Positions 199-43,261 of a DNA stretch of 64,000 nt are shown here, in pieces. The stretch is taken from the NCBI GenBank assembly GCA_963674735.2, contig CAXXQS010000002.1:448001-512000 (forward strand). The letters are read 5' to 3'. Both the position numbers and the translations under genes were made by a program. The notes beneath the pieces are model-generated. The model worked only from the letters and a program-made list of their open reading frames with translations. It was not told the DNA's origin and made no database searches. This stretch comes from Myxococcota bacterium (lineage in GTDB: Bacteria > Myxococcota_A > SURF-8). Each line of letters begins with the position of its first letter. Position 1 is the stretch's first letter.

Positions 199-951
199 GT
201 GCCGAAAGTCGACGATGAAGCGATCGTGCTCAAGCTCACCCCGACCGGCGAAGCCGACTGTGTCGTGCATCTTTTGTGCAAAACTCGCGGTCGGCGCAGC
301 GCTTTTGCCCGCGGCGCACGCAAAAGCCGCAAACGTTTCGTCGGCGCGTTGCAACCCTTCAGTCACATCCGTGCCGGTTTCACCATCCAACGCACCCAGC
401 GCCTCGACCGCCTCGACTACGCCGAAGTGGCGACGCCTTATCTCGAATTACGCGAGGATCTGAGCCGCATCGCCCTGGCTTCGTACTATTGCGAATTGCT
501 GAACGTTTTCCTGGCCGAAGGCGAGCTTTACCCCACCGAATACGCCCTGATGCGCTTTTTCCTCAACCGGTTGCGCCAACATCCGGCTACACTGAAACAC
601 CGCCTCTTTTTTGAATTGCGCCTGCTCGACGCCCTGGGCTTTCTACCCGATGTGCAAAGCTGCGCCGAAGATGGTAGCGCGCTTAGCGGCGCAGCCTGGT
701 TCGATCCGCAGCGGCAGGTGTTTCTCGGCCGCCTAGCCGCCGCCCGACTGGAGCGAGCCGTTCCCGTTTGCCGCCATAGCCGTGAAGCCTTGGCCATGAT
801 CCCCACCATCCCCCTCGACGGCTTGGCTCATCTGCGCGTTACACCCGTTATGGCACACGAGATGCTGACCGTCACCGCGGCGGTCATCCGCGCCCTGTCG
901 CCCCGACCGTTGAAAAGCCTGGCGCTTCTGGATGCGGAGTTGAGAGCATGA
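199..951 (+). CDS. recO: DNA repair protein RecO
   Basis: N-terminal AIVLK..GEAD...[18 protein letters not shown]; [13 protein letters not shown]; RBS GAGGAG before GTG; zinc-finger cysteines partly lost. Confidence 0.9.
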
Positions 952-2750
952 GCCTTACCCGTCGCGTCCTGAGTCTGATCGCACCGCAAAGCGGAATCCT
1001 AGCCGCCGCGCTCGGCTGCATGCTGGTCAACGCGGCCGCCACGGGAGCCTATGCCTACCTGATCGGACCGGTGGTCAAGTTTCTTTTTGCGGGGGGGCTG
1101 AGCTCCGGCGACAGCCTGACACGCGCTTTGCAAGCCTTCGGCGCTCAACCGGTTCTGGACGATCGCGGCTACCTGATGGCGCTGTTGCCGCTCCTGGTTC
1201 TGGCGGCGGGAATGGCCAAGGGTCTCTCTCAGTTCGGACAGTTCTTTCTGATGGGGTTGATCGGCGAACGCGCGGCACTGGTTTTACGCATGCGCCTGCT
1301 CGACAAACTGCACCGCCTGCCGGATGATCGTCTCGAACGCCAGGGCCCCAGCGACTTGCTCACGCGTCTGACCGCCGATATGACTTTGTTGCAGGAGTCG
1401 CTCACCCACGCCCTCGGTTCGTTGATCGCCGATTCCTTGAAAGTGCTGGTGCTCTTGTCGGTCGCGGTGACTCTCGATTGGCGGCTGGCGCTTTTGACCG
1501 CGCTGCTGGTGCCGGTGATGTCCTGGCCGATCGTGACCTTGGGTCGTTGGCTCAAACGCACGGCGCTGGGCCGACAGGAGGCGCTGGCCGATCTGACCGC
1601 CCACATTCAAGAAGACTGCGCCAGTTCGCGCCTGATCCGCGACTACCAGGCCGCCGCCCCGCGCCGCCGCCGGTTCGAACGCAACAGCGGACGCTACTTC
1701 ACCGCCAGCCTGCAATTTTTCCGCGCCCGTGGCTGGTCGTCGCCCATCATGGAAGTCTTGGGAGCCGTGGGTGTGGCCGGAACTTTATGGCTGGCCGGAT
1801 CGCGTATGGCGGCGGGAGATTTGGTGCCCGAGCACTTCATCAGCTTCTTCGCCGCCGTCATGCTGCTTTACGAACCGCTTAAAAATCTCGGCCGCTTGAA
1901 CGGCGTAATTCAGTCTGGACGCGCCGGAGGCGAACGCGTCTTCGCCATGCTCGACTGGGAAGACGAACGCGACCGCGACCGCGGCACCGCAACCCCGACC
2001 GCCCCGCAGATCGCCATTCGTTTCGAAAACGTGGTTTTCGGTTACGGCGAAAAACGTGTCCTCGACGGACTATCGCTCACCTTAACCGCCGGGTCGGTCA
2101 TGGCGCTGGTGGGACCGTCCGGTACGGGAAAAACAACCCTCACCCGGCTTTTACTGCGCCACTACACGCCATCCAAAGGTCGTATCCGGATCGACGATCT
2201 TCCCCTGGAAGCCTGCCGCCTCGATGCCTTGCGCTCCTTGATCGCGGTGGTGGAGCAGCGGCCGCTGTTGTTCGACGACACGCTCGACGCCAACCTGCGC
2301 ATCGCTTGTCCCGAGGCCACCCAGAAAGCCGTCGGCGAAGCCATTCACCGCGCCCGGCTCGACAACGTGGTGGCGCGCCTGCCCAAAGGTCGTGCAACGC
2401 GGCTGGGCATAAACGGCGAGCGCTTGTCCGAAGGCGAACGCCAGCGCGTGGCGATTGCACGCGCCTTTCTCAAAGCGGCCCCCATCGTGGTGCTCGACGA
2501 AATCACCGCCGCGCTCGACGCTGCCAATGAGGCCGCCATCCGCGAGGCCCTGCGGGAATTGTCGGTGGGACGCACGGTGCTGATCATCGCCCATCGGCTG
2601 ACCACCATCCGCCACGCCGACCGCATTGCGGTGATGCAATCCGGGCGCATCAGCGAAACGGGGACACACGACGAACTGATGGCGCAGGATGGCCTCTACC
2701 GTCGTTTCGTGGAATTGCAGAACCCGACGACCAGCGACGAAACCGATTAG
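948..2750 (+). CDS. ABC exporter, fused permease/ATPase (MsbA-like)
   Basis: N-terminal TM domain; Walker A GPSGTGKT; signature variant LSEGERQR; Walker B VVLDE; H-loop IAHRLTT; overlaps recO stop. Confidence 0.85.
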
Positions 2751-5315: not shown

Positions 5316-7328
5316 ATGGTTAACCCGATTTCCATTCTCGCTCGTCCGACTGGTCTGGGGCTGTTGGTGCTTGGGTTTCTGGCAACCGCATTATTCGGCT
5401 GTCAAGACACCCCCACCGACAAACCCCACTACGTCCTGCACCACGAAGCGCGCGCGCCGCTGCTCAAAATCGCCAAAGCGGCCGCCACTTCCCGCTATGC
5501 GGATACCTATGCCATAACGGATATTCACTGGCGCGGAGCGAAAACGCACTTTGTGGTTGAGCGCGACCAACAGCCGATTTTCGAACTGGTCTTGAGTTAC
5601 CCCGAGGAAAGCTGTGCGGGCGAACGCACCGCCCAGTTCTGCCTGACGCTGGAACAAACCGGCACACAAGGCGCTATTCGCTCGGAAATGGACCAGCGCT
5701 ATTACCGCTATCTGATCAAGCAACTACGTCGATTGGATGAATCGGATTCCTTGTGGCGGCGGACGGATGCCGTTTCAGCTCCCGATGACAAGCTCAAGCC
5801 GATCGGTTACCGCGAAGTCCCCTGCCAAACGCTACGCGAGGAAGAAGATCCCGACCGCTACAATGTTTTGAACGTGGGCGTGCCACGCGCGCTCAACATC
5901 GGGTTGGTCGGAGCGATATTCACGCTCTTGCTGATTCTTTTTATTTTGAGTTGGCGACATGCCGAACCGAATAAACTACCCTCGCTGGATCTGATGCGCC
6001 AAGCTTGGGTGAAGGCTCTGTTCAGGCTCCGCATCCATCCTCAGGCGATCCGCTGGCTGATCACGCTCGCGTTGTTGGTGGTGATGCTGGACATGTTGCT
6101 CGGGTCGTTGAGCCACGTACGCAATCTCGGTCACCTGGCCTTCTGGCAGATCTGGTGGCCTTTGCTGCCTTTGCTGCCGCTGCTGCTTGGCCGGATATTC
6201 TGTGCCATCTGCCCGGTATCGGCGCTGGCCGGATTTTTACGACGACACGGGCTCAAACGAGCGGTTCCCCCATGGTTTGCAAAGCTCGGATTGCTTCCGG
6301 CAATGGTGACGCTGCTGATATTCGGCGTGCTTGATCAATTGATCCGAATCGAAGATCGTCCTTGGATATCGGGGCAATTTTTGTTGATCGTCACCTTGAG
6401 CGCCCTGGTGATGCACGCGCTTTATCGTGAACGGGTGTTCTGCCGCCAGATCTGCCCGGTGGGTGCCATTCAAGGCTTGCTCGGACGCCTTTCGGCGGTG
6501 GCCTTCCGCTGGCGAACCGATTACACGGCCACTCCCGCGTGCCGCTTCGGCCTCGTCAAAAAAACCGGGGCAGACGATCCGCATTGCGGATTATGCGGAG
6601 ATTGCTGGCGCGGGAATGAACAAGACGTAACGCTATCGTTGCGACCGCCCGTCGCAGCCGCGCGGCTCACGGGGACGATGGTCGGTGAAGCGGCGCTGAT
6701 GTTTCTGCTTTTAGCCCACGTGTTATTCGAACAGACCCTTGCCAACGATATCGGCGCTTTTTTATTGCTGCTGTACGAGCACGCCTTCATCGTTTTCCAA
6801 CCCAACCCGCCCTTGCCCGCGTGGCTGCCTTATCTGCCGATTCAAGTTTATCTGATGGGACTGCTGCTGAGTTACGTCCTGGTGGTATTCGGCGCACGCC
6901 TGCTGCTCCTGCGGCTGGCGCGCATTGCCGAAGCGCCGCTGTCGCCCGAAACCTCGCGGCGCATGGCGCTGGGACACCTGCCCCTGGTGGCCTTCAGTCT
7001 GCTGGCGCTCATGCTGCCTCAATGGGCCATGCTACCGGACCTGATGGCGCGTCTCGGTACCCTTATTGCCGGAGGCGCCTTCAGCGATATTCCGCTGGTA
7101 CAGGCCAGCGACTTTCCCGTCGCAACCCTGCGCGTCTTACGGGAAATGCTGATTTTGTTCGGGTTGCTGTTCAGCTGGCTGCTGCTCAAACGCAACGCTC
7201 GTTCGGAAAGCCCTTCGTCTCCGGCGCTTGAACGCCGCCTGCGGGCCGAAATCGTTTTCGCCGTTTTGATGACGACCTTGCTGTTGTTTTTATTCGCCCT
7301 TCCGACTACGACAGGGGATGCATGTTGA
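5316..7328 (+). CDS. Membrane 4Fe-4S-binding protein (NapH/YccM-like) with N-terminal lipoprotein-like soluble domain
   Basis: Lipobox-like LFGC; GRIFCAICPV and RVFCRQICPVG motifs; CGLCGDC; many TM helices. Confidence 0.65.
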   Translation: MVNPISILARPTGLGLLVLGFLATALFGCQDTPTDKPHYVLHHEARAPLLKIAKAAATSRYADTYAITDIHWRGAKTHFVVERDQQPIFELVLSYPEESCAGERTAQFCLTLEQTGTQGAIRSEMDQRYYRYLIKQLRRLDESDSLWRRTDAVSAPDDKLKPIGYREVPCQTLREEEDPDRYNVLNVGVPRALNIGLVGAIFTLLLILFILSWRHAEPNKLPSLDLMRQAWVKALFRLRIHPQAIRWLITLALLVVMLDMLLGSLSHVRNLGHLAFWQIWWPLLPLLPLLLGRIFCAICPVSALAGFLRRHGLKRAVPPWFAKLGLLPAMVTLLIFGVLDQLIRIEDRPWISGQFLLIVTLSALVMHALYRERVFCRQICPVGAIQGLLGRLSAVAFRWRTDYTATPACRFGLVKKTGADDPHCGLCGDCWRGNEQDVTLSLRPPVAAARLTGTMVGEAALMFLLLAHVLFEQTLANDIGAFLLLLYEHAFIVFQPNPPLPAWLPYLPIQVYLMGLLLSYVLVVFGARLLLLRLARIAEAPLSPETSRRMALGHLPLVAFSLLALMLPQWAMLPDLMARLGTLIAGGAFSDIPLVQASDFPVATLRVLREMLILFGLLFSWLLLKRNARSESPSSPALERRLRAEIVFAVLMTTLLLFLFALPTTTGDAC

Positions 7329-8512
7329 CACGGAATCGCTCGATCGGTCGCCTCCTTTTACTGCTGCTGTCGATCTGGCTGTGTGCCTGCCAACCGGGAC
7401 CGGAACGTCTGGCAGCCGATGCCGAACGCGCCGCCGAACTGGGCTGGGATCGTCTGGTGGAACGCTTTGCCATCCCAAGCCTCGAAGCTATCGAAAAAGG
7501 CGGCTGGGTCGCTTTGCGCGACAGTCAAAACGATGTCTGCCAGGTTTGCGGGCCAAACATGTATGTCGAAAGCCAGGCCTACGACCTCAACTGGTTTATG
7601 GACGGCCACCTGAATCACTTTCACCGTCCGCAAGACGAAGCGGTAGCGCGACGGATCGTCCAGGTATTGCTGAAAACCCAACATCCGCAAAGCGGAAACT
7701 GGCCATGGAGCGACGATGGCTGCCTGCATGAATACCTGGCGGTGGCACTGCATCGCATGGGGCAACCGGAAGCCGCGCTGAAAGCGGTTGATTGGGCGGC
7801 TGAATGGGGATTGAAAGAGCGTCTTACGCCCGAAGGTCATTTGATGGAAACCGAGGGCATCCACGTGGTCAAATCCTTTGGACTCAAGGATCATCCACCG
7901 CTGCCTTTCGACGGAGGCTATCCCCACGTAACCGGGTTCTTTCAGCACCTGACCGCCGTGGACGAATACCCCATGCTACTGGAAATGCTGGCCATTACCG
8001 GCACCCGCAACCGCCACCCCGAGTTCACCCGACGCCTCGAACTGGGCTGGAAGCACTACCTGGATCATCCGAAAATGGATCGGCGTAACAGCGTCGATTT
8101 CATCCAAAGCGTGGGAATCGCCATCTATCTGCTGGCCATCGCGGAAGGCCGCCTGGAAGCCGATCCGCAGATGACGCCTCAAGCGCAGAAACTGTTGCTG
8201 CATTTGGCGGAACACCAGGTTAGTAAGTTGATCCCCGAAACGCTGATCACCGCCACGTTGCTGGTCGGCGTAGCCGGAACCGAGCTGATCCGTCAACATC
8301 CCGATTTAGCTGACGAACTGGCGCTACACGTGCTCAATGCCCAGGATATCGGGGGCGAATGGCCCATGAACAAGTTTCTTTTCCTAACCCCCGCGACCGA
8401 CACTCTGATCCATGATTTCCGGGTCACCTACCCGGCCGGCGAGGTCGAATGCCTCTCGACCTACTATTCCGCTTTCGGATTACGCTTATATGCCGATAAC
8501 CGCTTGCGCTAA
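7322..8512 (+). CDS. Hypothetical lipoprotein, probable alpha/alpha-barrel (QW-like repeats)
   Basis: Lipobox LCAC; LLKTQHPQSGNW and VLNAQDIGGEW resemble prenyltransferase/squalene-cyclase QW repeats; overlaps upstream gene. Confidence 0.55.
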   Translation: MLTRNRSIGRLLLLLLSIWLCACQPGPERLAADAERAAELGWDRLVERFAIPSLEAIEKGGWVALRDSQNDVCQVCGPNMYVESQAYDLNWFMDGHLNHFHRPQDEAVARRIVQVLLKTQHPQSGNWPWSDDGCLHEYLAVALHRMGQPEAALKAVDWAAEWGLKERLTPEGHLMETEGIHVVKSFGLKDHPPLPFDGGYPHVTGFFQHLTAVDEYPMLLEMLAITGTRNRHPEFTRRLELGWKHYLDHPKMDRRNSVDFIQSVGIAIYLLAIAEGRLEADPQMTPQAQKLLLHLAEHQVSKLIPETLITATLLVGVAGTELIRQHPDLADELALHVLNAQDIGGEWPMNKFLFLTPATDTLIHDFRVTYPAGEVECLSTYYSAFGLRLYADNRLR

Positions 8513-8784
8513 AAAGCCCGGCCAAACTGAAGTTGGTATAATTTGAAAGGCTTGGCTGGGGCTCCGTCAAGTACTACAGATACGGCCAACTTTGACGCCT
8601 CGCGTTATAGCAAGCGAGTCTTCCTGAAATAAATACTTAAATTTACTTGACAATGTCTCTCAAACTTGGCACATAGGGGGCCCGCGGGATAGAACAAATG
8701 TTCAAGATGCGTTATCTAAACGCGTCACCCCTGACAAAAATGTCTTTGTTTTTATCAGGTCTGGACACAATCCGCAGAGGGGGG

Positions 8785-8813
8785 TTGATTTTTCCATTGA
8801 ATAGATGTATAAT
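8785..8813 (+). promoter_or_regulatory. Sigma70-type promoter upstream of the GT2 operon
   Basis: TTGATT (8785-8790), 17-nt spacer, TATAAT (8808-8813); a second TGGTATAAT extended -10 lies at 8534-8542. Confidence 0.55.
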
Positions 8814-9121
8814 GGTCAGAATCGTATCCCCTTGATTTAGCTCGACAAGTTTATACAGGTGCGAAAGAACCGGGATCCGTTCCCGGTGAACGGAATAATT
8901 TGGTATCGTCCTTGCTTTCTTAAAAGAAAACGTCGGATAAAACAACCTATCTGGCAGATGCTCAGTTGTAAAGCATCGTGACATCCCGGCCCATTCACTT
9001 CCTGTAAAGACAGAGGGCGGAGTACATTGGATTCCCGATCGGGAAGTGGCTGGTACATATTGAAAGGGTTGAAAATCGACCCGCCGGATAATAAAAACGA
9101 AAGAAAACGCGAGTTTATAAT

Positions 9122-10459
9122 ATGGATTTCACGGATATCATAACGGTTCTGGCCCACATGGTGGTGTTCATCGTCTTCTGCAACCGCTATATCGTCGGTT
9201 TGTACCTGAAGCGTCTCAAAGGTCATAAGTTCGACGAAACCATCGAAGGCTACGAACCCACCGTCAGCGTCGTCATTCCCATGTTCAACGAGGGCGAAGG
9301 CATCTATCGCACGCTCAAGAGCCTCGTCAACCTGGATTACCCCAAGGACAAACTGGAAATCGTGGTGGTGGACGACTGTTCCACCGACGACAGCTACCAA
9401 TGGGCGCGCCAGGCGGCTCGCGAACACCCGAACGTCAGCGTCATGCGCAACCCCGTCAACATGGGCAAACGCAAGGGCATCAACCGGGCCGTGCGCCGTT
9501 CTAAAAGCGAAATCATCGTCTCGGTCGATTCCGATGTGGTGGTGGACAACCAGGCCATCCGCTCCCTGGTCAAACGCTTCGTGCGCCCCGAAATTGCCGC
9601 CGTCGGCGGGCGCGTGAACGTCATCAACAAAGACGACAACTGGCTGACCCGCATGCAGACGGTGAAATACTACTTCGGCTACGAGTATCTGAAGAACGTT
9701 GAAAACGCTTTCAATACGGTCATGTGCCTGTCGGGCTGCCTGACGGCCTACCGCCGTGAAGTCTTGATGGAGCTCGAACCGATCCTCGAAAACCGCAGCA
9801 TGTTCGGCATTTCCATCAAGTACGGCGAAGATCGCTTCCTGACCCGCCAGATCGTCAAGGCCGGTTACCAAACCACCATGACGCTCGAAGCCAATTCCTA
9901 CACCATGGTGCCCAATAACCTGTCCACCTATTTCTCGCAGCAGTTGCGCTGGCGTCGTTCGAATGCAGTAGACTTCTTCGGTGGCATCTGGCACATCTGG
10001 CGCGTCAATCCCTTTGTCATGGTGCATTATCTCGGCCTGTTCGGCATGATGTTCATGTATCCGATGGTGATCGGACATACCGTGGTAAGCGGAAACTTCC
10101 TGCCCCTGGCGGTGATCCATCTCGGCGTACTGGGTGTCTTTTCCATGGTCTATAAACTGCGAACCTGGGCCTTGCCGTCCGATATGAAGGTTAACCCCAT
10201 GTCGTTTCTGGCCATGACCTTCGTGATGCCGGTCACGTACCTGCTGCTCACGCCCCTGGCCCTGTTCACACTCGATTCGGGTAGCTGGGAAACCCGCGGC
10301 AAACCGACTCCCAAACCGGAAACGGCCAAACCCGACGAGCGTCTGCCCGAACCGACCAATGTGTATCCCCTGCGTCTGGCGCATGCCTCCCATGATCGGG
10401 GAAGCGCCGCCATGAGCGCCCCGACCTGGGGCAAAGTAGCGGAAGGCGGCCGCCGCTGA
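9122..10459 (+). CDS. Processive GT2 glycosyltransferase, NodC/hyaluronan synthase/chitin synthase type
   Basis: VVIPMFNE, VVDDCSTD, GKRKG, VDSD (DxD), CLSGCLTAYRR, GEDRFLT, QQLRWRRS and C-terminal SWETR; N- and C-terminal TM helices. Confidence 0.85.
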   Translation: MDFTDIITVLAHMVVFIVFCNRYIVGLYLKRLKGHKFDETIEGYEPTVSVVIPMFNEGEGIYRTLKSLVNLDYPKDKLEIVVVDDCSTDDSYQWARQAAREHPNVSVMRNPVNMGKRKGINRAVRRSKSEIIVSVDSDVVVDNQAIRSLVKRFVRPEIAAVGGRVNVINKDDNWLTRMQTVKYYFGYEYLKNVENAFNTVMCLSGCLTAYRREVLMELEPILENRSMFGISIKYGEDRFLTRQIVKAGYQTTMTLEANSYTMVPNNLSTYFSQQLRWRRSNAVDFFGGIWHIWRVNPFVMVHYLGLFGMMFMYPMVIGHTVVSGNFLPLAVIHLGVLGVFSMVYKLRTWALPSDMKVNPMSFLAMTFVMPVTYLLLTPLALFTLDSGSWETRGKPTPKPETAKPDERLPEPTNVYPLRLAHASHDRGSAAMSAPTWGKVAEGGRR

Positions 10460-10482
10460 GCGGTTTCGGAGAGGGTTGAGTC

Positions 10483-11589
10483 ATGTTAAAAAAATTCTTC
10501 GGTTTCTCCAATAATCTGTTCGTCAATAGTTACAAGCTGATGGGATTCGTGGTGCTCAGCGCCATTCTCCTCGGTATTGTCAGCTATTTGACCTTGAGCC
10601 TGTTCTACCTGTTCGACCGCGAGTGGATCGCCCCGATCATTTTATCGCCCAGTTCGGAACGGGTGATTCAGATGAACAGCCAGCTTGTGCAGCAGAAGTA
10701 CAATCGCGACAAGCTGAAAGTCGAGCGCATAACGCTCGAAATGCAGCTGAATCTGATCGAACGCACCATCGCGGTCAACAGCGAATTCCAAAACCGCTTC
10801 AAGTCGGCCGTCACCTCGGATTTGCAGGCCAAGCAGAAAGAACTACGCGGCTTGCAAAGTCTGTACGCCGAGTATCGCGCCACTAAAAAGCAGGTGGTCG
10901 AGGCCAACAAGGCCTTCGAGCGGCTCAACGAAACGGATCTGCAAAAAGATCTCGCCGCCGGACTGATCGAGGAAGAGGTTTACGTTCGCAACAAGTATGC
11001 CCTCTCGCAAAACATCAGCCAGCAAATCAGTTACGAGCAAAAACAGCTCGAATTCGAGTCGCGTACCATCGAACTTGGCCGCCGTATCGAAGCGTTAAAA
11101 GCGCTGGACGAAAAACTGGGCCGACAGACACCGGCAAACGGCGATTCATCGAGCTACGAAGTCCTGCTGATGGAACAGGAATATCAGCGGTCGCTTCTGG
11201 AAATGGAAGAACTGACCGCGCAGAAAATCCCCATCGAAAAGCAGATCGCCTTGCTCGATTCCTCTCTGACCGAATACGACAAAATCCTCGGTACGATTAC
11301 CCTGTCGCCTTACTACAAGGCGATGAACGAAAAGATTTCCATCGCCTTCGTGCCTTACTCCAATCTCCAAAACGTCAAGGCCGGCGCACCGATTTACGGC
11401 TGCTCGCTGGAATTGATCTGGTGTCGCGAGGTTGGATCGGTACGGCAGGTGCTCGACGGCGAGGTATCGGCCCGGCATCCGATGTTTTCGAGCGATTTGC
11501 GCGGGGTGATGGTGGAAATCGAACTCAAAGACATGGCGTGGGCCGAAGAAAAAGCACTGCACGTCGATTCCCGGCCCTTGTTGATCTAA
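10483..11589 (+). CDS. Single-TM periplasmic coiled-coil protein (membrane-fusion/adaptor-like)
   Basis: One N-terminal TM helix, long heptad-rich helical region, C-terminal beta-rich domain with CSLELIWC; RBS GGAGAGG. Confidence 0.7.
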   Translation: MLKKFFGFSNNLFVNSYKLMGFVVLSAILLGIVSYLTLSLFYLFDREWIAPIILSPSSERVIQMNSQLVQQKYNRDKLKVERITLEMQLNLIERTIAVNSEFQNRFKSAVTSDLQAKQKELRGLQSLYAEYRATKKQVVEANKAFERLNETDLQKDLAAGLIEEEVYVRNKYALSQNISQQISYEQKQLEFESRTIELGRRIEALKALDEKLGRQTPANGDSSSYEVLLMEQEYQRSLLEMEELTAQKIPIEKQIALLDSSLTEYDKILGTITLSPYYKAMNEKISIAFVPYSNLQNVKAGAPIYGCSLELIWCREVGSVRQVLDGEVSARHPMFSSDLRGVMVEIELKDMAWAEEKALHVDSRPLLI

Positions 11590-11728
11590 AGTCGCTCGGG
11601 TCGTGTCCCGCCCGGAAAGTTTTGGCGAACACTCGCATCACACCGAAAAACCGGATATAATCCGCCGCATCGAAGAATTCGTCGGATCCGCATCGGACCC
11701 GGAGCCCACGCGCAAGGGGAGAGTACGT

Positions 11729-12877
11729 ATGACAATCGCACAGCTACGTTGGATATGCGGCCTGCTGGTCGGCCTCATCATCGGATCGATTCCATTTGCG
11801 GGATGGGCCGAAGATAATTCCGAGAGACCGTTGACCGTCCGCCGCACGCTGTCGGAGCCGCCCGGATATTGCGACTGGGTGATCGGAAGCACCGACTCCG
11901 AACGAGCCAAATTGCTATACCCCGAACTCTATTCCACAGTCGGGCCGGTTTCCAACGGTGACGAAGATTCCGGCGATGAAAACTCGATACTCGACAAGCT
12001 GGCCATGCGCCTGACCATCGGCTTGCAGTACCGTTTTATCAATCTATACAAAGGCGTCATGATGGGTCGCCGGGCCGGGGCCGAATGTCTGCGCTACCGC
12101 GCCCAGGCCGCCTTGCAAGCCGCTTTGGCCACCGGTAACGACTGGGGCCGCCTGGAAGCCCTGGAAGCGCAGGCCCGCGTGCTCGACGACGCCCTGCCCG
12201 AGGCCGCCGCCCAACTCGACCATCTCTACGAGCAACTCGCCAACAATCTGGTAACCGTCGAAGAACTTTATGCCGCCCAGCTCAAGGTGGACACTCTCAA
12301 GCAAATGCGCAGCCGCGTCAGCGCCGACCACGAACGCTTGTCCAATCAGCCCGCTCCACCCAGCGAATCCCTCGAAGCGATCATTCAACGTTACGAGCAG
12401 GCCGACGACGCCGTGGAGGCGCGTTCAGCCGATATCCGCCGTTCCGAAGTCTGGGCGCTGGATATCAAGGGTGGTTACGATCAGACTTTCGGGAACCAAA
12501 AGGAAGTCCCGCTGTTCGCCCAGCTCAAAGTGTCGTTCAATTTCGGCGCTTTCGCCCAGCCCTCCGCCGAGCGTCGTGCGGCTGCGGGCCGGAAACGCTG
12601 GCGCGCGGAAAGCCCGGACGCCATCGGGGTGAAGCTGGCCGAGTTGCGTCACAATCTGGCAACGGCGCTGCATGCCGAACGCCGCCGCCTGGACGACGTG
12701 GGAGCCTTGGCCGACGAGTTGCAACAGCGGCTCAACACCCTGGAACGCATCCAAACCGAAAAAAGCCGTCAACTGCGCGACCTGCTGTGGCTCGATTACG
12801 TGCGCATGGACGCCGAACGCGAATACCTGCGCCTGCACGTCAAGCAGCTCGAAACCGTGGTGGGCGACAACGGTTGA
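11729..12877 (+). CDS. Exported helical protein, possibly TolC/outer-membrane-efflux-like
   Basis: Signal peptide after RBS AAGGGGAGA; two repeats of [beta hairpin + long helices] (MRLTIGLQYRF; WALDIKGGYDQ...FAQLKVSFNF), as in OEP-family proteins. Confidence 0.55.
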   Translation: MTIAQLRWICGLLVGLIIGSIPFAGWAEDNSERPLTVRRTLSEPPGYCDWVIGSTDSERAKLLYPELYSTVGPVSNGDEDSGDENSILDKLAMRLTIGLQYRFINLYKGVMMGRRAGAECLRYRAQAALQAALATGNDWGRLEALEAQARVLDDALPEAAAQLDHLYEQLANNLVTVEELYAAQLKVDTLKQMRSRVSADHERLSNQPAPPSESLEAIIQRYEQADDAVEARSADIRRSEVWALDIKGGYDQTFGNQKEVPLFAQLKVSFNFGAFAQPSAERRAAAGRKRWRAESPDAIGVKLAELRHNLATALHAERRRLDDVGALADELQQRLNTLERIQTEKSRQLRDLLWLDYVRMDAEREYLRLHVKQLETVVGDNG

Positions 12878-12998: not shown

Positions 12999-13481
12999 TC
13001 ACAATCTTAACGTTTCATCAAGGGCTATTACTACTTCTTTACCAAGCCTGTATGCTTTTATTGCCTCGTCAAATGTGGCCTGGTTAGGTGGATTCCCGGC
13101 ATGAACAAATTCATTTCTCCATGTAATAAGATTCTTGTAATTTTCTTTCACGCTGCCGTCTTGAATGTTTTCTTCCTCTTTCCTATCCACTCTATTTTTG
13201 AAACTATCAACAAACTCGTCGCCAAAGCATTTTATATATTTTTCGATGTCATCTCTTGTAACATGACCATTTATCCTGTCGAAGTGTATGGATGCAAATA
13301 TACCCACCATTGGATGAGTCTCATTAGCAAATCTCTTCAAAAGGTGTTTCACATTTACTTCATATATTGTAACAGCCGAAACAGCGACAAAACCCACATA
13401 CCGAGATGTCACAAAGTCGTCCTCAATACCACTTACGACATGGATCATATGCTGCATAAATGAATCAGAGTCAGCAAACAC
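12999..13481 (-). CDS. HEPN-domain protein (putative RNase)
   Basis: 160 aa, helical, with an Rx4H motif (WRNEFVH) near the C-terminus and an upstream conserved-type E (VTIYE); 6 bp downstream of the DUF262 gene. Confidence 0.75.
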   Translation of the reverse strand: MFADSDSFMQHMIHVVSGIEDDFVTSRYVGFVAVSAVTIYEVNVKHLLKRFANETHPMVGIFASIHFDRINGHVTRDDIEKYIKCFGDEFVDSFKNRVDRKEEENIQDGSVKENYKNLITWRNEFVHAGNPPNQATFDEAIKAYRLGKEVVIALDETLRL

Positions 13482-13487
13482 AGGTCT

Positions 13488-14588
13488 CTACTCCGACATG
13501 CCCAGGAGGATTTTCCTCACCTCTTTAAATCGATTCCTAAGTGTAATGGTATCTTGTGTACCTGAACTGGTGTAATCATTATTGAACGCCTTATCCTGTT
13601 TAAGACTTCTATAATTTTTGGCTAATTCATCAGGCATGCTAGAGATATTTTTATAGATAGTGCAAAATACAGAGTCGAGATAGGCTGTGTTGATGGGACC
13701 CCGAACGTGAAAAGGTTTCTCTCCTAATCGTTCTATGATTTCTTTACATGCTAGAGGGAACTTCCCCCTAAATTCTTGTACGAATTCTGCTTGACCCTTC
13801 CTATTATTTTCCATGGCCTTATTGAGGAATTCTTTCATTGGCTTCTCATACGAACTCTCTCCTTTCTCGAGCAACGCAAAGAGGCGAAGAACCAACTCTA
13901 CATCTTTTTGGTATTTGTCAAGATCCTTTTTACCAATGATTTTACGCCAGTTCTTATCATCATTTAGTTGTCTCAAAACAGAAACAAATTCACCGGTGAA
14001 GACACAGTTGCGGATTTCCTGTGGTTTTAGCGATGTTCCACCCGTATTCAACCTTGCAAAAATGTGATATACACTGGTGTTCTTTTCGGCGGGATTGATC
14101 TGCCGAATGTTGATTGCTCGCAGGACACTGCCCTCAATCTTCCTCCGGTCCGATTCCGAGAATTCCTTGAACGTTTTTTTTGCATATCGAATATTATCGT
14201 TGAGTCCCTTGAGAGAAAATACCTTCCGTTTTCCATGCTCTTCGTTTCCGAAATATCCTTCAAAGAAGGAAAATATGCTCAAAAGCCGTTGCTGGCCATC
14301 GATGACAAGGTATTTGCTATCTTCTTGAAGGTATAGGAATACGGGGGGGACTGGTAACCCCATTAAAAATGAGTCTATAAGCAGCGATGCCTGTTCGATA
14401 CTCCACACAAATTCTCTCTGGAAATCCGGAATGACAATGCTTCCTTTTTTCCATTGTAAGTAGAGACCTTCTAATGTGAAATCAGAAGGATAAGAAGCAA
14501 TATCGTATTCTATGAAAGCTTCATTTTCCTGTTCCTGATTTTCTATTTCCATATCGTCTGAATGGAGGACCGTATTACCATCGATCAT
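13488..14588 (-). CDS. DUF262 (GmrS/ParB-like) domain protein
   Basis: IPDFQREFVW, VIDGQQRL and IFARLNTGG motifs; RBS AAGGAGG; no C-terminal HNH seen. Confidence 0.9.
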   Translation of the reverse strand: MIDGNTVLHSDDMEIENQEQENEAFIEYDIASYPSDFTLEGLYLQWKKGSIVIPDFQREFVWSIEQASLLIDSFLMGLPVPPVFLYLQEDSKYLVIDGQQRLLSIFSFFEGYFGNEEHGKRKVFSLKGLNDNIRYAKKTFKEFSESDRRKIEGSVLRAINIRQINPAEKNTSVYHIFARLNTGGTSLKPQEIRNCVFTGEFVSVLRQLNDDKNWRKIIGKKDLDKYQKDVELVLRLFALLEKGESSYEKPMKEFLNKAMENNRKGQAEFVQEFRGKFPLACKEIIERLGEKPFHVRGPINTAYLDSVFCTIYKNISSMPDELAKNYRSLKQDKAFNNDYTSSGTQDTITLRNRFKEVRKILLGMSE

Positions 14589-32990: not shown

Positions 32991-33218
32991 CTTCGGAATA
33001 TGTCGTCCCGCTTTTCCCATTCTCCCTTTCCTAATCGGCCGCGTTTTCTGTATTGACCTGAGCCACTCTCGTTTGACATCCGTGTTATTTATTGCCACAC
33101 TACCAAGCGGGCCGGGCGTTTTGGCCATCAGTCGAAACCGAGATCAGGAACATGGGGTGCGGGGGTGCGCCACAGGTCGCACGTCGGAACCTTTGGGCCG
33201 CAAACACCGAATGACGGG

Positions 33219-35210
33219 ATGGCACAGGTGGCGACAAGCCGCAGGACAATCAGGCGACGGAAAACCGGAGGATCGCGGCGCATTCTTCCGGCTTGGTGTG
33301 CCCTGCTCGCCGGGCTGTTGCTGCTGCTCAACACCGGTTGCGCCTCGAAAAAAGCGACACCCGACGATGCGTTGCGGCGGCCGCTCATCAAGGAAATCGA
33401 ATTCGAGGGAATGAGCGTCTTCGAAAAAGACGAAATCCTCGCCTATGTCTACATGGACGAAACGTCCTGGCTCCACGGCATCGGCCTGGCCGATCCGCAC
33501 ACCTACTCCAAATCGTTTGCAGTCGAGGACGCGGGCCGCATCGAAAGCCTGTACGCGGCTCATGGCTATTACGATGCGCGTGTAACCGACATCCGCAGCG
33601 AGCCGCTAAACGAGGCGGGGGATAAGGTGCGCGTGATCGTGCAGATCAAGGAAGGCCCGCCTACCCGTTTGCGCACCATCAGCTTCGACTGGAGCGAGCC
33701 CCATCCCGACCGCGTCGCCATCGAAAAGCAGGCCGTCGTCAAGCCGGATGCGGTGTTCAGCATTCCCGATCTCGATGCCGGCACCGACGCGCTGCGTCTG
33801 GAATTGGAGCGGCGCGGACACGCTTTCGCCCAGGTGACGAGCTCGGCCGAAGTGAATCGCGAGGCGCGCTGGAGCGATGTCCGTTTCGCGATTGCGCCGG
33901 GACCGCTGTGCACGATCGGGTCGATCCGATACGAGGGACTCGCGACCGTCCCCGGCCGTCTGCTCGATCCCAATATCGATTTCGCTCCCGGCCAGCGCTA
34001 TTCACCCGAACTACTAGCGCGTATCGAACGCGCGATATACGCCATGGAGGTATTCGATACGGTGGCGGTGCTGCCGGACGAAAATCTGAATGAAAAAGGC
34101 AAACTCGACCTTGTCATACGGGTGAGGGAAGGTCAGCCCCAGCGATTCAAGGTGGGGGTCGGTTTGGGAGTCGAACCCAATCGCTGGGACGGTCACGTCA
34201 GCCTGCAATACACCCATATGAACGTGGCACAGGAACTCATCCGCTTCGACCTGCTCACGCGGGTCGGTTATGCACTGCTCCCCTACCCCTGGGACGTGCA
34301 GGAACACGGACCGATTCTGGAGGTGAATCCCTGGTTTAAAAAGAAGGGGTGGCTCGAACCCAAGCTGGTGTGGTCGTTGCAGCCGAGTTTCAAGCTCGAT
34401 ATCGAACAGGGTTACCAATATTACACGCCCGGCTTCCGGCTGGGCGTCTCGCGTTTTCTGTTCGGCTTCACCTTGGCGGAAGCGGCCTACAACGCCCAGT
34501 TCTTCGATTTCTTCAATCAGTCCGCCGTCTTCGACGCCAATAAATCGGTTTTGGGGCGCGATTACAAAGATCCGTACTTCCTGAGCTTTCTCGAATTTCG
34601 TTACTCCGTGTATTTCACCGATGCCTTCACCGATCCGAAAAACGGCGTGGTGCTCAGCGCCCGCTACGACATCTCGGGCTCGTGGCTGGGCAGCTACTAC
34701 GACTATATGAAGCTGATTCCCGAAATTCGCGCGTATTGGCAAACGTTCTCACACCTGCAAATCGCCGCCCGCCTGCAGACCGGCTGGCTGTTTAAATACG
34801 GCCAAAAACCCGGCACGCCCATCATGCACAAGTACTACCTGGGTGGATCGGACACGGTACGCGGCTGGGGACTCAAGCGCCTGTCACCGCGTATCGAGGA
34901 TTGCGACGCCGACGGCCATTGCCGCAGTATTCCGGTGGGGGGCGAAACCATGGCGTTGGGCAATTTCGAACTACGTTTCAAGGTGATTGAAAGCCTTTAC
35001 ATCGTCCCCTTCGTGGATGCGGGTGACGTACAGGACGGCGAGATGACCTACAAACCGACGCAGTGGAGCTACAGCACCGGTGGCGGCATGCGTTACGCCA
35101 GTCCCATCGGCAAGTTTCGTGTCGATTTCGGTTGGCGCTTGAATCAACCGGCCCGCTTTGCCGGAGAGCAGCGTTGGGCCATTCATCTGAGTTTCGGAGA
35201 AACCTTCTGA
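33219..35210 (+). CDS. tamA: Omp85-family outer membrane protein (TamA/BamA-like)
   Basis: POTRA repeats, YYLGGSDTVRGW, GNFELRF, YASPIGKFRVDFG, C-terminal SFGETF; start uncertain (33165-33219); followed by a tamB-like gene. Confidence 0.8.
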   Translation: MAQVATSRRTIRRRKTGGSRRILPAWCALLAGLLLLLNTGCASKKATPDDALRRPLIKEIEFEGMSVFEKDEILAYVYMDETSWLHGIGLADPHTYSKSFAVEDAGRIESLYAAHGYYDARVTDIRSEPLNEAGDKVRVIVQIKEGPPTRLRTISFDWSEPHPDRVAIEKQAVVKPDAVFSIPDLDAGTDALRLELERRGHAFAQVTSSAEVNREARWSDVRFAIAPGPLCTIGSIRYEGLATVPGRLLDPNIDFAPGQRYSPELLARIERAIYAMEVFDTVAVLPDENLNEKGKLDLVIRVREGQPQRFKVGVGLGVEPNRWDGHVSLQYTHMNVAQELIRFDLLTRVGYALLPYPWDVQEHGPILEVNPWFKKKGWLEPKLVWSLQPSFKLDIEQGYQYYTPGFRLGVSRFLFGFTLAEAAYNAQFFDFFNQSAVFDANKSVLGRDYKDPYFLSFLEFRYSVYFTDAFTDPKNGVVLSARYDISGSWLGSYYDYMKLIPEIRAYWQTFSHLQIAARLQTGWLFKYGQKPGTPIMHKYYLGGSDTVRGWGLKRLSPRIEDCDADGHCRSIPVGGETMALGNFELRFKVIESLYIVPFVDAGDVQDGEMTYKPTQWSYSTGGGMRYASPIGKFRVDFGWRLNQPARFAGEQRWAIHLSFGETF

Positions 35211-38200
35211 TGACGGTCGATCCGCACAAACAAGCGGACACGCCGCCCGAGCCGCGTGACGAACCCGCGCCGCCTTCACCCCGGCATCGCTATTGGGGAC
35301 GCCTGCGCAGCGCCTTCCGCTGGCTGCGCATTTCCGTGTGGCTGCTTGTCTTCGTGCTGCTGACGTCTTGTGTGCTGTTGCTCATGACCGACAGCGGCCT
35401 GCGCCTGATCCTGCGTAAGGGCCTGCCGATCTACAACGACCTGATTCCCGGTGAAATCCATGTGGGAGCGGTGGACGGCAGCCTGTTCTTCGGTTTCGAT
35501 CTGCAAAACGTCACCGTGGCCGACCGACGGGGTCGCCTGCTGGTAGGGGTCCGGCGTCTGCGGCTGAACATCTCGCCGCTTCTGATCATCGATGGTCTGG
35601 TGGACATCCGCCTGTTGTCGCTGGTGGCCCCCGAACTGCATCTGCGCCAAGGCCCGCGAGGCAGCGCGTTTCTCGATCTGGCGCCCGAAAGCGACGGAAC
35701 ACCGCCCGAGCCCTCCCCGCCCGAACCACCCCCCGAACCCGACGCACCCCTGTTTACATTGCCCGTGGCGATACGCATCGAGGAACTGATGGTGGATGGT
35801 TTTCACCTGGTGCTTCATGCGGATGACGACGAGGAAAGCGAAGAAGAGACGGTCTTGGTGGAGCATGCCGGGCTGCGTCTGACCGCGCGCGGACGCGGGG
35901 CTGTCGTCGAAACGATCGTTCGCGATCTCTCCGCTGAAATCCCGGTTACCGGAATCAGTCTGCATCAGCTTGAACTGGAGGCGGCCTGGGAAGGGCGCGC
36001 CGCCTACCTGCGGCAGTTGGACGCGGAAACCTCGCTGGGAAACCTGCACCTGGTCGATACGCGTTTCGATCCCACAATCCTTGGGGGACGCGTCAACCTC
36101 ACCGCCCACAGCGCCGCCGCCGATCTGCATGAACTGACGGGCCGCCGCTTTGCCGGAGAAGCCACGCTTGAACTGCACGCCAAGGGCGACCCCGGCGATC
36201 TGGCGCTGACCTTGAAGGCGGCAGTGGGCGAAGCCCGACTCGATATGCAGGCGAAGGGCGCCTGGGAACCGCAACCCTGGGCCGAGTTGGATTACCGGTT
36301 GGCGGGTATCGATCCCAAGCGTTTCGGGCTTCCCAAGGCCGGACTCCTTGGCGGAGAAGGACACGCAAAACTTAAAGGCGTAACGCTGGAGACGCTCGCG
36401 GCTTCGCTGGCCTTTACCTGTCGTCGCTGTCGCCTCGACCCGGTCGGGGCGCTGGCGCTCTCCGTGAACGCCCGCCTGAAGGCGCGCAACGCGGATGCGG
36501 ATGTAAAACTGCAAACCGCCGGTGTGAACGTGACGGCCACGGGCGCGTTGCGCGAGTTCGAGGAGTTGACGGCGGAGCTGGGGATCGCCATTCCCGATCT
36601 CGGTCCCCTCGCGTCGGTCTTTCTGCCCCAACCCGTCGGCGGACGTCTGCAGGCCGCCGCAACCTGCGCGGGCCGCTGGCCCATGCCGTCCTGCACGCTC
36701 GACGCGCAACTCGGCAACGTAACGATCGAGGATGTTTCGCTGGCCGAGGCGGTTTTAACGGCGCGTTCCCGCCCACGGGCGAAGAGCCTGGAGTTCAACA
36801 GCCGCCTGGATCTGCGCAAGCTCAACGCCGGAGCGATCACCCTTGCCACCGCACGTGTCGACGCGACCGGCACGCCCACCGATATCGGCTTGCAAATCGA
36901 GGCGACGGCGGATGAGCGCAACCAGGGGAGTCTGGCTCTGCGCGTTCGTCCCGGCGCATCCTTGCGCATCGATCTGCGTGAAGGCCGGGGGCTGGTGGGT
37001 GGACACAACCTGCACCTCACCCGACCCGCCGCCGTCGAGATCGTCAAACGGCGCGTGCGGCTGCACGATTTCGAACTGGCCATCAACACGGGACGCCTGA
37101 CGGTCGAGGGGCTGTTCAACCCGGCGGGGACAAACGACCTGAAGCTGTCTGTGACCGGCTTCGAGCTGGCATGGCTCGCAGAATGGCTACCCGATCCCAA
37201 GCTGGCCGGGCGGCTCGACCTCGAAGCCGCGCTCACCGGAAGCGGGCAGGCCCCGAAACTGAGCGCCACCCTTAGCGGAACGGATTGGCGCGTGAACGAA
37301 CACCCGCTGGGCGACCCGATCTTGCAAGCCGGGTTGGACGGAAGGTACGCCGAGGCCGATCTGGCGGTGCACGATACCGTCGGTCCTTGGTTCGAAATGA
37401 ACGCCCGCGTTCCTTTTCAGCTCAATCTGCAAAGCGGAAAGGCCCGTTGGCGAAAACGGCAACCCCACGACCTGACCGCCACTCTCAGCCGCTTCAAATC
37501 GGAACGCTTGGCGGGGCTGGTGGAGCTGCCGCCAGAATTGTCCTTCGCCATCGACGGCGAGGCGCAGGCAAGCGGTCCGGCGGACGCACCCACGGCCACC
37601 GTCGTGCTGACGGGCGATCTGAACTACGACACCTTACCGCCCCAGCCGCTGGAAATCCGTATGGCGGCCGAAGCCAAGCGGCAACAACTGGATGTCGTTT
37701 TGGATGCCGCCGGACCGTTCCCGCTTCGTTTGCAGGCGGAAACGAGGCTCGATCTCGCGCGGCTGACGCAGGGAATCGGCGACCCCGGCCAAGCACCGCT
37801 CGCGCTGGACCTTCAGGCGGACGGCTTCGAGTTGGCCACCCTCAATCCGCTTTTGCCTGCCGCCTTGCAGGAGCTGAAGGGGCGTCTGTTCGCCGACTTC
37901 AATGTGACGGGCACCCTCGCCGCGCCCAAACCGGCCGGTCGCCTGCGCCTCGAAGGGGGGCGGGTCTACCTGTTGAACGTGGCCGATCCCCTGCGCGACA
38001 TCGAATTGTCGTTGGCGCTGGAGGGACGGCGTGTGACGCTCGAACACTTGAATGTAACCAGCGGCCGGGGCACGCTCACCTCACAAGGTACGCTGACGCT
38101 CGGAGCGGCGGGCGAGCTGGACGGCCGCTACGATGCGGAATTGAAAGACTTCCAGCTGCAAGCGCCCGGCCTGCCGCAAACCTTCATCGATACGCGTGTG

Positions 38201-39196: not shown

Positions 39197-39668
39197 GGGG
39201 AATGCAACGCCGACCGGTCTGCGGGTCCGGCAGGAACCCTTCCTTGCACACACATATCGCGGCGTCACCGACCTTCGTGCAGCTGCCGTTGTCGGAGCAA
39301 TCGATGCCGGCGCACGGATCGGGACCGTTCTCGGTCGTCGGGGGTGCCGCCGAGCAGGTTGCCTCCCAAGTCAGGCTGCAATCCACGTATTCCGGTAACA
39401 GCGCATTCGGGGTATCCCGGCAGTCGCCGTGTGCCGTGGCGACCACCCGACCGGGAAAGCAGGCCGTCTGCGCGGCGACGGTGGCCCGGTCTTTGGCGGT
39501 GGCGCAACAGGCCGCTTGGGTGGGCGTCACCTCGACATTTGCCTGCCCCCGCTCGATGCGCGTCTCCGCCGCAGCGGGCGGCGAATCGCTTGGCGGGGCG
39601 CTTTCCTCTGCGTCTACGAAGGTGCTCGGAAAAACCGATAACAGCAGGATGAGGACAAAACGTTTCAT
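39168..39668 (-). CDS. Small secreted Cys-rich protein with EGF-like domain
   Basis: Signal peptide; CAGIDCSDNGSC...CVCKEGF...C. Confidence 0.65.
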   Translation of the reverse strand: MKRFVLILLLSVFPSTFVDAEESAPPSDSPPAAAETRIERGQANVEVTPTQAACCATAKDRATVAAQTACFPGRVVATAHGDCRDTPNALLPEYVDCSLTWEATCSAAPPTTENGPDPCAGIDCSDNGSCTKVGDAAICVCKEGFLPDPQTGRRCIPLTVFQNQVL

Positions 39669-43006: not shown

Positions 43007-43261
43007 AGAAATACCTCGCCCTTTGTCGTAAATGCGTGCCGGTTTCAGTTTTTTATGTAAGTAAGCTCTAGCCGAACACAAAGATAAAGGCAAGCAATTA
43101 GCAGATAATTGCAAAGGTTTTACTGACGAGAAAGTCAGGCGAAATGGAACGATCGCAGGTCGGTTCTCCCCCCTCTGTCTGGTTTACGCCGTCGGCACCT
43201 ATTGACAGCCTACTCCGACCCCGGTAGGCTGGTTCTCTTTCAATGGGTTGGTGGAGTGAGG

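Follow-up and report, generated by a model that had tools for sequence, protein, structure and literature searches.

A conserved three-gene cassette that may link a NodC/hyaluronan-synthase-type glycosyltransferase to its own adaptor-like and TolC-like proteins

Here, we characterized a three-gene cassette in a 64,000-nt stretch of DNA from contig CAXXQS010000002.1 (positions 448,001-512,000), which is referred to as the window and whose own numbering is used for the positions below. The cassette spans 9122-12877 and consists of three co-oriented open reading frames (ORFs) on the + strand, found in the ORF list at the coordinates at which an earlier note on this DNA had placed them. The first encodes a family 2 glycosyltransferase (GT2), and the other two encode proteins, termed P2 and P3, whose predicted structures resemble an adaptor, or membrane fusion protein (MFP), in part and a TolC-type outer-membrane channel, respectively (Table 1). 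The genes are separated by gaps of 23 nt (GT2-P2) and 139 nt (P2-P3), the latter falling to 13 nt if P3 starts at the alternative GTG. The ATG of P3 was taken as its start because a hydrophobic, signal-like segment then sits at the N-terminus, and purine-rich stretches resembling ribosome-binding sites lie 7-8 nt upstream of the ATGs of both P2 and P3. The envelope of the host is diderm, since the window also encodes a TamA-like Omp85/POTRA protein and then a TamB-like protein with 1377 aa (33165-39193, + strand), as well as a porin. None of the three cassette proteins is a tetratricopeptide repeat (TPR) protein, a porin or a modifying enzyme, and no TPR/porin pair, deacetylase, other modifying enzyme, glycoside hydrolase or cyclic di-GMP (c-di-GMP) receptor is encoded within ~7 kb of the cassette, in agreement with the earlier proposal that the operon is devoid of TPR/porin and modifying-enzyme genes. 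The sole TPR protein of the window is encoded at 39668-43114, on the opposite strand.

Table 1. Features of the cassette and its leader, in window positions, and of the LamG-like elements in three related loci (L001, L002 and L003)
Feature	Position	Strand	Basis or remark
AT-richer leader ahead of the GT2 gene, 609 bp	8513..9121	+	GC 0.45 at 8500-8999 vs ~0.57 in the flanks
Sigma-70-like site TTGATT-17-TATAAT in the leader	8785-8813	+	Promoter scan
GT2 synthase gene	9122..10459	+	445 aa, ATG start; NodC/hyaluronan-synthase/chitin-synthase type
QQLRW motif, aa 273-277 of GT2	9938..9952	+	72-row alignment
W-E-T-R, aa 389-392 of GT2, window form of the WGTR gating-loop motif	10286..10297	+	72-row alignment
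P2 gene	10483..11589	+	368 aa, ATG start; adaptor (MFP)-like
P2 membrane anchor, aa 17-44	10531..10614	+	Hydropathy segment 12-45; model helix 2-44
P2 hairpin-tip motif D-L-A-A-G-L-I, aa 156-162	10948..10968	+	Between model helices 59-146 and 164-213
P3 gene	11729..12877	+	382 aa from ATG; alternative GTG start at 11603 gives 424 aa (11603-12877)
P3 signal-peptide-like segment, aa 1-27, ending ...FAGWA	11729..11809	+	Hydropathy; cleavage site inferred from sequence
LamG-like element, L001	3769-4509		Lipobox-like LSSC
LamG-like element, L002	7091-8917, C-terminal part		Beta-rich domain after or fused to P3
LamG-like element, L003	2343-4040, C-terminal part		Beta-rich domain after or fused to P3

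The three genes travel together. A scan with a P2 profile over one genome per species yielded 197 stretches with a relative, and the best 80 of these 197 loci were analyzed; the co-occurrence counts given here rest on these P2-anchored loci, which are labelled as Acidobacteriota (70), Verrucomicrobiia (2) and Myxococcota or 'proteobacteria' metagenome-assembled genomes (8). By hidden Markov model searches, GT2, P2 and P3 are co-oriented and in the same order in 74 of the 80 loci, and the GT2 gene is divergent in two (Kofleriaceae). The other four comprise two loci cut just before P2, one cut just after P2 and one with the last 77 residues of GT2 only. Where sequence upstream of P2 is available (77 loci), the three genes sit next to one another in all but one locus (76), and none of the 79 loci with sequence downstream of P2 lacks P3. 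Thus, the side-by-side order in other genomes that the earlier note had anticipated was found, as was the co-occurrence of both partners with the GT2, on which that note had staked its proposal beforehand. The third protein of the acidobacterial loci is too distant from P3 for BLAST; it aligns to the P3 profile over 320 columns (hhalign probability 98.7%, E 2.9e-16) and, judged by that alignment, is a distant P3 homologue. ORF clustering also produced clusters from alternative frames of the three genes, which were regarded as overlapping-frame artefacts; beyond these, the count for any further gene family did not exceed 16 of the 80 loci, the commonest neighbors within 6 kb being a histidine kinase (16/80), a sigma-54 activator (12/80), a PilZ protein (8/80) and an ABC (ATP-binding cassette) ATPase (8/80). 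The trio is a conserved, self-contained unit and its grouping is not due to chance. The P2 family numbers 789 representatives of 50% identity clusters at E<=1e-3 and 413 at E<=1e-30, and the cassette is frequent in soil Acidobacteriota. Within the acidobacterial clade (clade B), the distance matrices of the three proteins correlate with r of 0.89-0.96, values reached by none of 500 permutations, which indicates inheritance as a unit, though it is not proof of binding; P3 is the fastest diverging of the three.

The GT2 has the features of a processive inner-membrane enzyme, as first proposed. It matches Pfam Glycos_transf_2 (8.3e-35) and Chitin_synth_2 (1e-20), is without a PilZ domain, and shows four hydrophobic segments by hydropathy, one N-terminal (~1-29) and three C-terminal (299-317, 321-346, and 361-384), followed by a non-conserved C-terminal tail. 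In an alignment of 71 relatives and the window protein (72 rows), the motifs DD (84-85), DSD (136-138), GEDR (235-238) and QQLRW are each kept in 69-72 rows. They agree with the catalytic motifs D, DxD, (E/D)D(R) and Q(Q/R)xRW reported for chitin synthase, NodC and hyaluronan synthase (HAS)-type enzymes, the last of which is given as Q(Q/R)XRW in PMC4132801 and as QxxRW in PMC11750622. Among NCBIfam models, NodC (TIGR04242, an equivalog model) scores highest, but its 181 bits fall short of the curated threshold of 550 bits, so that the enzyme is not a NodC equivalog; its identity to the NodC of Sinorhizobium meliloti (SmNodC) is 29% over 369 residues. Its nearest solved relatives are hyaluronan synthases, namely HAS1 (8smm, 8.4e-24) and the Chlorella-virus enzyme CvHAS (~5e-17), and structures of cellulose and chitin synthases match far more weakly. 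The gating-loop columns read W in 71 of the 72 rows, G in 63 and E in 8, T in 68, and R in 71. The window protein reads S-W-E-T-R-G, and all eight rows with E for G (WETR) belong to its clade. In the GT2 tree, this clade (8 loci) stands apart from the acidobacterial clade, and SmNodC lies on a very long branch. Two loci labelled Verrucomicrobiia (L011 and L053) fall inside the acidobacterial clade, beside Acidobacteriota rows; this placement could reflect a binning error or gene transfer.

P2 has a short cytoplasmic N-terminus, one membrane helix, a conserved strand (49-54), a helical hairpin of ~130 Å and a C-terminal beta domain. Its AlphaFold2 model, built from a 35-row alignment, has a predicted local distance difference test (pLDDT) score of 82 and comprises helix 2-44, strand 49-54, an 88-residue helix (59-146), a turn, helices 164-213 and 225-273 and a beta-rich part (285-361). 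Together with the one hydrophobic segment (12-45), this bears out the description of P2 as a single-pass, long coiled-coil protein with a beta-rich C-terminus. No Pfam or NCBIfam family was matched by P2, and its nearest clusters in the language-model Atlas are unnamed. The model follows the plan of adaptors in having a membrane anchor at the N-terminus and a long antiparallel alpha-hairpin after it, and when it was compared with the Protein Data Bank (PDB) by Foldseek, the top match was EmrA (4tko, 1.3e-6); MacA (3fpp) and one MacAB-TolC chain were also matched at E<=1e-3, with EmrAB-TolC chains falling just below that threshold. In its pump, EmrA, an adaptor with an unusually long hairpin, is paired with a transporter that, as in the case of a GT2, does not extend a domain into the periplasm. 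By analogy, an adaptor for a glycosyltransferase would have a similar gap to bridge. The DLAAGLI motif at the hairpin tip is the single conservation peak within the coiled coil (maximum of the 7-residue window 0.94, at 159), and L157, A159, G160, L161 and I162 are each at least 90% conserved among 35 sequences. Other conservation peaks lie in the strand after the anchor and in the motifs SPYY, AFVPYxN and YxCxL of the C-terminal domain, whose cysteines 307 and 314 are invariant. Taken together, the model moderately supports P2 as adaptor-like.

The model of P3 resembles a TolC protomer. AlphaFold2, from an alignment of 7 rows, gave a model (pLDDT 77.2) with helix 47-63, a beta hairpin (66-73/93-102), helices 103-171 and 177-238, a second hairpin (242-253/262-270) and helices 278-341 and 344-378; this amounts to four strands and a TolC-like helix order, with long helices of ~64-69 residues and ~100 Å. 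Both repeats of a beta hairpin and a long helix that had been read from the sequence therefore appear in the model behind the signal-peptide-like segment, but the repeat itself is undetectable in sequence, since the two halves are not detectably similar (hhalign E 0.17). In a Foldseek comparison with the PDB, every one of the 39 structures matched at E<=1e-3 was an outer-membrane factor, including SilC (5e-10), TolC, VceC, OprM, OprN, CusC, MtrE, and CmeC, and the nearest named Atlas clusters were 'outer membrane efflux', TP096X and TolC, with scores of 0.95-0.96. These results are in agreement with the predicted outer-membrane channel fold of this protein. The mature P3 is smaller, at ~340 residues, than the matched PDB chains (411-493). 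Hydrophobic and polar residues alternate in three of the four model strands, and these amphipathic strands, together with the signal peptide, would place P3 in the outer membrane. C48 and C120 of P3 are invariant, and the presence of such a cysteine pair in both P3 and P2 is consistent with these proteins lying outside the cytoplasm.

Keeping these features in mind, our leading hypothesis is that the cassette forms a direct synthase-adaptor-channel conduit, a reading that we hold to be somewhat better than evenly balanced. Using UDP-sugars, the GT2 would build a chain containing GlcNAc at the inner membrane and would translocate this chain by way of its own transmembrane region. P2, anchored next to the GT2 by one helix, would oligomerize into a periplasmic sleeve with its hairpins, the DLAAGLI tips of which would dock on the periplasmic end of the P3 tunnel, and P3 would form a trimer with a 12-stranded barrel and a helical tunnel of ~100 Å. 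Chain growth would push the polymer outward, with glycosyl transfer as the sole energy source, as neither an ATPase nor a proton-driven pump is part of the module; the GT2 would thus take the place of the pump, as in the proposed XcsAB-TolC and BgsAB-TolC systems discussed below. The anatomy of the genes, the catalytic motifs, the modelled folds and the synteny are results of the present analysis, and we infer the oligomeric states and stoichiometry, the contacts, the length and chemistry of the polymer and its export. The exit of a polymer through an MFP/TolC-like conduit, as the earlier note had suggested, gains support at the strength just given. A complex prediction for GT2 and P2 scored 0.03 (mark 0.32), a value that counts neither for nor against contact. 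More tentatively, and with rather more doubt than belief on our part, the cassette may represent a distinct and widespread trans-envelope glycan machine, in which a NodC/HAS-type GT2 acts as the 'pump' for a chitin- or hyaluronan-like chain whose way out is a highly diverged adaptor and channel dedicated to it, the whole being self-sufficient and independent of the TPR/porin, outer-membrane polysaccharide export (OPX) and ABC pathways.

Several observations weigh against a synthase-driven conduit, and the first of them concern the synthase. WGTR, which follows the last of the interface helices, is the gating-loop motif in hyaluronan synthases, and G455A is reported to inactivate CvHAS (PMC11750622); caution is thus warranted for the window's clade, which has WETR at the site where a change from glycine to alanine abolishes the activity of CvHAS. 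By analogy, caution is also warranted by the size of the GT2 and its four hydrophobic segments, which resemble those of NodC, an enzyme described in PMC4132801 as having no translocation channel and as producing short oligosaccharides. The same source names L19 and R349 as the product-length ruler of SmNodC. The column aligned to R349 holds K in 54, R in 13 and W in 2 (window included) of the 72 GT2 rows, giving K or R in 67, in a membrane stretch where the alignment is gapped and uncertain, and the column aligned to L19 holds I, V or L. It is conceivable, then, that a NodC-like GT2 makes short cytoplasmic (chito)oligosaccharides and that P2 and P3 join an inner-membrane transporter encoded elsewhere in an ordinary tripartite efflux pump for these products or a derivative of them, acting as an oligosaccharide signal, a view with which NodC as the top NCBIfam model would agree and for which an ABC exporter gene is at hand in the window (948-2747). 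However, this gene lies 6.4 kb from the cassette, beyond opposite-strand genes, and no transporter family is conserved near the cassette in the 80 loci, where the most widespread neighbor is the histidine kinase. In addition, the NodC model score falls well short of its cut-off, the GT2 family keeps the DWGTR gating loop of hyaluronan synthases where SmNodC reads SDWLSR, and the nearest solved relatives are translocating hyaluronan synthases. We therefore consider an efflux pump for a NodC-like product unlikely.

The partner proteins contribute further points of this kind. For P2, the template modelling (TM) scores to its structural matches are 0.15-0.28, and just three of its nine Foldseek matches at E<=1e-3 are adaptors, the remaining six being Tc-toxin and Smc coiled coils and one integrative model. 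HlyD-type Pfam models match none of 35 P2 members at E<=1, and when the PDB was searched with sequence profiles, P2 and P3 gave only coiled-coil noise (best E 0.0041 and 0.11). In canonical adaptors, the parts of the chain before and after the hairpin together form the lipoyl and beta-barrel domains, the lipoyl domain being split by the hairpin. P2 is unlike such adaptors in having one strand ahead of the hairpin and ~80 beta-rich residues after it. Consequently, the adaptor fold that the earlier note had foreseen for P2 stands in part: the anchor, the hairpin and the presence of EmrA and MacA among the matches speak for membership in the HlyD, EmrA and MacA type, whereas the weak TM-scores and the generic coiled coils among the matches do not, and by sequence P2 falls outside the type. 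For P3, TM-scores to TolC-family chains reach 0.29-0.43 only, and no Pfam or NCBIfam family was matched. Pfam OEP (PF02321) is not matched by the window protein at E<=1; among P3 relatives, it was matched by one of seven members at E 0.4 and by none of 25 further members at E<=0.1. P3 would therefore count as a TolC/outer-membrane-factor protomer by its modelled fold, though not as an OEP member by sequence.

With the weak structural matches of P2 to adaptors and its atypical beta domain, it could also be argued that P2 acts together with the GT2 and P3 but is a periplasmic scaffold or a chain-length or assembly factor, comparable to the periplasmic part of Alg44 or to a co-polymerase, and that the chain reaches P3 in the absence of a sealed tunnel and of tip docking. 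There is a precedent of sorts in alginate secretion, where the periplasmic domain of Alg44 is reported to be similar to MexA/HlyD (PMC8892547) and yet alginate leaves by the porin AlgE (PMC13438883). Docking is in better agreement with a conserved tip on a 130-Å hairpin and with the presence of a TolC-like protein, without exception, in the loci holding the downstream side of P2, and we regard the scaffold explanation as improbable. A third possibility is that P2 and P3 export another cargo, either a protein or a small molecule, while the GT2 modifies this cargo or the cell surface, so that the linkage of the genes would be regulatory instead of mechanical. TolC-like channels and their adaptors are indeed best known for the export of proteins and drugs (PMC8277102). 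Nevertheless, the 80 loci share no conserved cargo gene and no conserved ABC, resistance-nodulation-division (RND) or major facilitator superfamily (MFS) partner, and gene order, tight spacing and co-divergence point to one machine; we judge export of another cargo to be very improbable. Fused forms of GT2 and P2 were not found among proteins of 659-2000 residues, and this weak evidence also counts against the conduit. The extensions of 15 long P2 relatives hold no Pfam domain.

The closest relatives of the cassette raise a last point against the conduit as it stands in the window. In seven of the eight loci of the window's clade, a beta-rich, LamG-like domain of ~175 residues follows P3 directly or is fused to it, as a separate gene in four loci and as a fusion in at least two. 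Besides the three loci in Table 1, the element occurs in L004, L005, L006, and L008. The domain has the conserved motifs GLKLRA.D.CN..YVMWR and RSDN and is marginal against Pfam Laminin_G_2 (22.2 bits, cut-off 22.9). Neither the window nor any of the 72 acidobacterial loci contains it, and it is also missing from a Paraburkholderia locus described below. From this comparison of sequences, the cassette copy in the window may be incomplete, lacking the fourth element of its clade. The designation of the system as 'minimal' in the earlier note calls for caution, since this fourth element is the rule in the closest loci.

A model of cyanobacterial cellulose secretion by XcsA, XcsB and TolC was reportedly put forward by Maeda et al. 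in 2018. It is the nearest counterpart of the arrangement proposed here, for a GT2, a HlyD-like protein and TolC have been proposed to act together in this system (PMC12430437, PMC8892547), a model that is said to lack 'experimental validation' and whose parts are not in one operon (PMC12430437). As these sources present it, Xcs shares with the cassette an inner-membrane GT2, a single-pass HlyD-like adaptor, a TolC-like channel instead of BcsB/BcsC and the absence of a pump ATPase, and differs from it by including an endoglucanase, XcsC. The cassette, for its part, has a NodC/HAS-type synthase without PilZ, partners that are invisible to Pfam and a channel encoded in the operon. A second counterpart is the BgsA-BgsB-TolC system for the mixed-linkage beta-glucan of Sinorhizobium meliloti, in which a tolC mutant is reported to be without polymer, although the authors cannot exclude indirect effects of the housekeeping TolC (PMC13438883). 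Here, too, a GT2 and a HlyD-type partner are described in one operon and a TolC-type outer channel is proposed. In contrast, the Bgs synthase is a c-di-GMP-activated glucan synthase and its TolC is a housekeeping protein, whereas the cassette has its own small TolC-like protein and no recognizable c-di-GMP receptor. As described, Xcs and Bgs both have BcsA-type synthases under c-di-GMP control, recognizable HlyD proteins and a housekeeping TolC encoded elsewhere.

Other known systems resemble the cassette in one part only. EmrAB-TolC and MacAB-TolC pumps and type I secretion systems share with it the anchored, long-hairpin plan of P2 and the TolC fold of P3, but the inner-membrane partner in the cassette is a glycosyltransferase and not an MFS, ABC or RND protein; P3 is smaller than the matched chains, and the beta part of P2 is smaller than in tripartite pumps and arranged differently. 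Alg8-Alg44-AlgK-AlgE, Bcs, Pga and Pel likewise couple a processive membrane GT2 to export. These classical synthase-dependent systems are described as using TPR scaffolds and 16-18-stranded porins (PMC13438883), and they also use modifying enzymes and c-di-GMP receptors, none of which is found in or beside the cassette. NodC and the class I hyaluronan synthases share catalytic motifs and overall size with the GT2, which is found in the window without nodAB/IJ or hasBC genes. Finally, for a different family, that of the bacterial chitin synthase genes of eukaryotic origin, a survey from 2016 found porin or efflux genes next to some members (PMC5122149).

The earlier note had regarded the architecture as undescribed. 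This view needs to be narrowed, as the combination of a GT2, a HlyD-like protein and TolC is in print for the BcsA-type glucan synthases of Xcs and BgsAB-TolC; the overall plan is already known, and the kind of system itself is still unproven. What look undescribed are the NodC/HAS-type synthase, the two unannotated partner families and the dedicated channel in the operon. No description of the cassette was found by full-text searches of openly accessible papers. For the proposal that TolC-type tunnels carry polysaccharides from membrane synthases, the cassette offers a cleaner test than the known systems: a channel and an adaptor, both dedicated and small, are encoded with the synthase, no other gene is conserved next to the trio, and a cultured carrier exists in Paraburkholderia sp. 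PGU19. Moreover, P2 and P3, two sizeable unannotated families, gain a structural assignment, and the cassette points to an unstudied surface polymer in Acidobacteriota. If the conduit is real, it would be a self-sufficient, three-gene route for the secretion of polysaccharides in diderm bacteria.

The carrier just named has the cassette on plasmid p2 (NZ_AP023182.1; 795-6206 of locus L081), where it was found by tblastn against plasmid records. The gene order there is P2, P3, a dehydrogenase of the UDP-glucose/GDP-mannose type and GT2, and a weak GH16-like ORF (9e-5) overlaps the region ahead of the GT2 gene. The arrangement recalls has operons, in which a synthase is paired with a dehydrogenase. 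Among the 80 loci, a UDP-sugar dehydrogenase occurs within 6 kb in two, adjoining the GT2 gene in L007 and with a weaker match in L018, and none occurs in the window; the dehydrogenase was accordingly rejected as a clue to a hyaluronan-like product.

The histidine kinase, the sigma-54 activator and the PilZ protein found near some cassettes are possible regulators, and the PilZ protein near a subset suggests a link to c-di-GMP; acidobacterial examples of PilZ or other regulator genes are found in L042 (2970-3716), L040 (3447-4574), L076 (10472-12178) and similar loci. In the window, a promoter scan returned five sites vs. 4.0 expected from shuffles, so that the sigma-70-like site in the leader is not significant on its own, and a terminator scan was not above shuffled expectation. 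No Rfam family matched anywhere in the window, the 609-bp leader included.

Upstream of the cassette and co-oriented with it are a gene for a polytopic membrane protein of 670 aa that carries NapH-like 4Fe-4S motifs (5316-7328, + strand; Fer4_5, 2.2e-10) and, overlapping it, one for a 396-aa protein without any family match (7322-8512, + strand); neither is kept beside the cassette at other loci, as determined by ORF clustering over the 80 loci. Just past P3 lies a defense-type gene pair (12999-13481 and 13488-14588, both on the - strand), one gene of which encodes a HEPN protein (Pfam RiboL-PSP-HEPN, 3.2e-13) and the other a DUF262/GmrSD_N protein (4.2e-30) that matches PADLOC NsnA (3e-67) and PD-T4-2_A (3e-51). 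With a G+C content of 0.39-0.44 relative to ~0.6 in its flanks, the pair looks like an inserted island. Farther away, at 53678-54610 (+ strand), the window encodes an IS110-family transposase (DEDD_Tnp_IS110, 3e-22; Transposase_20, 8.3e-19).

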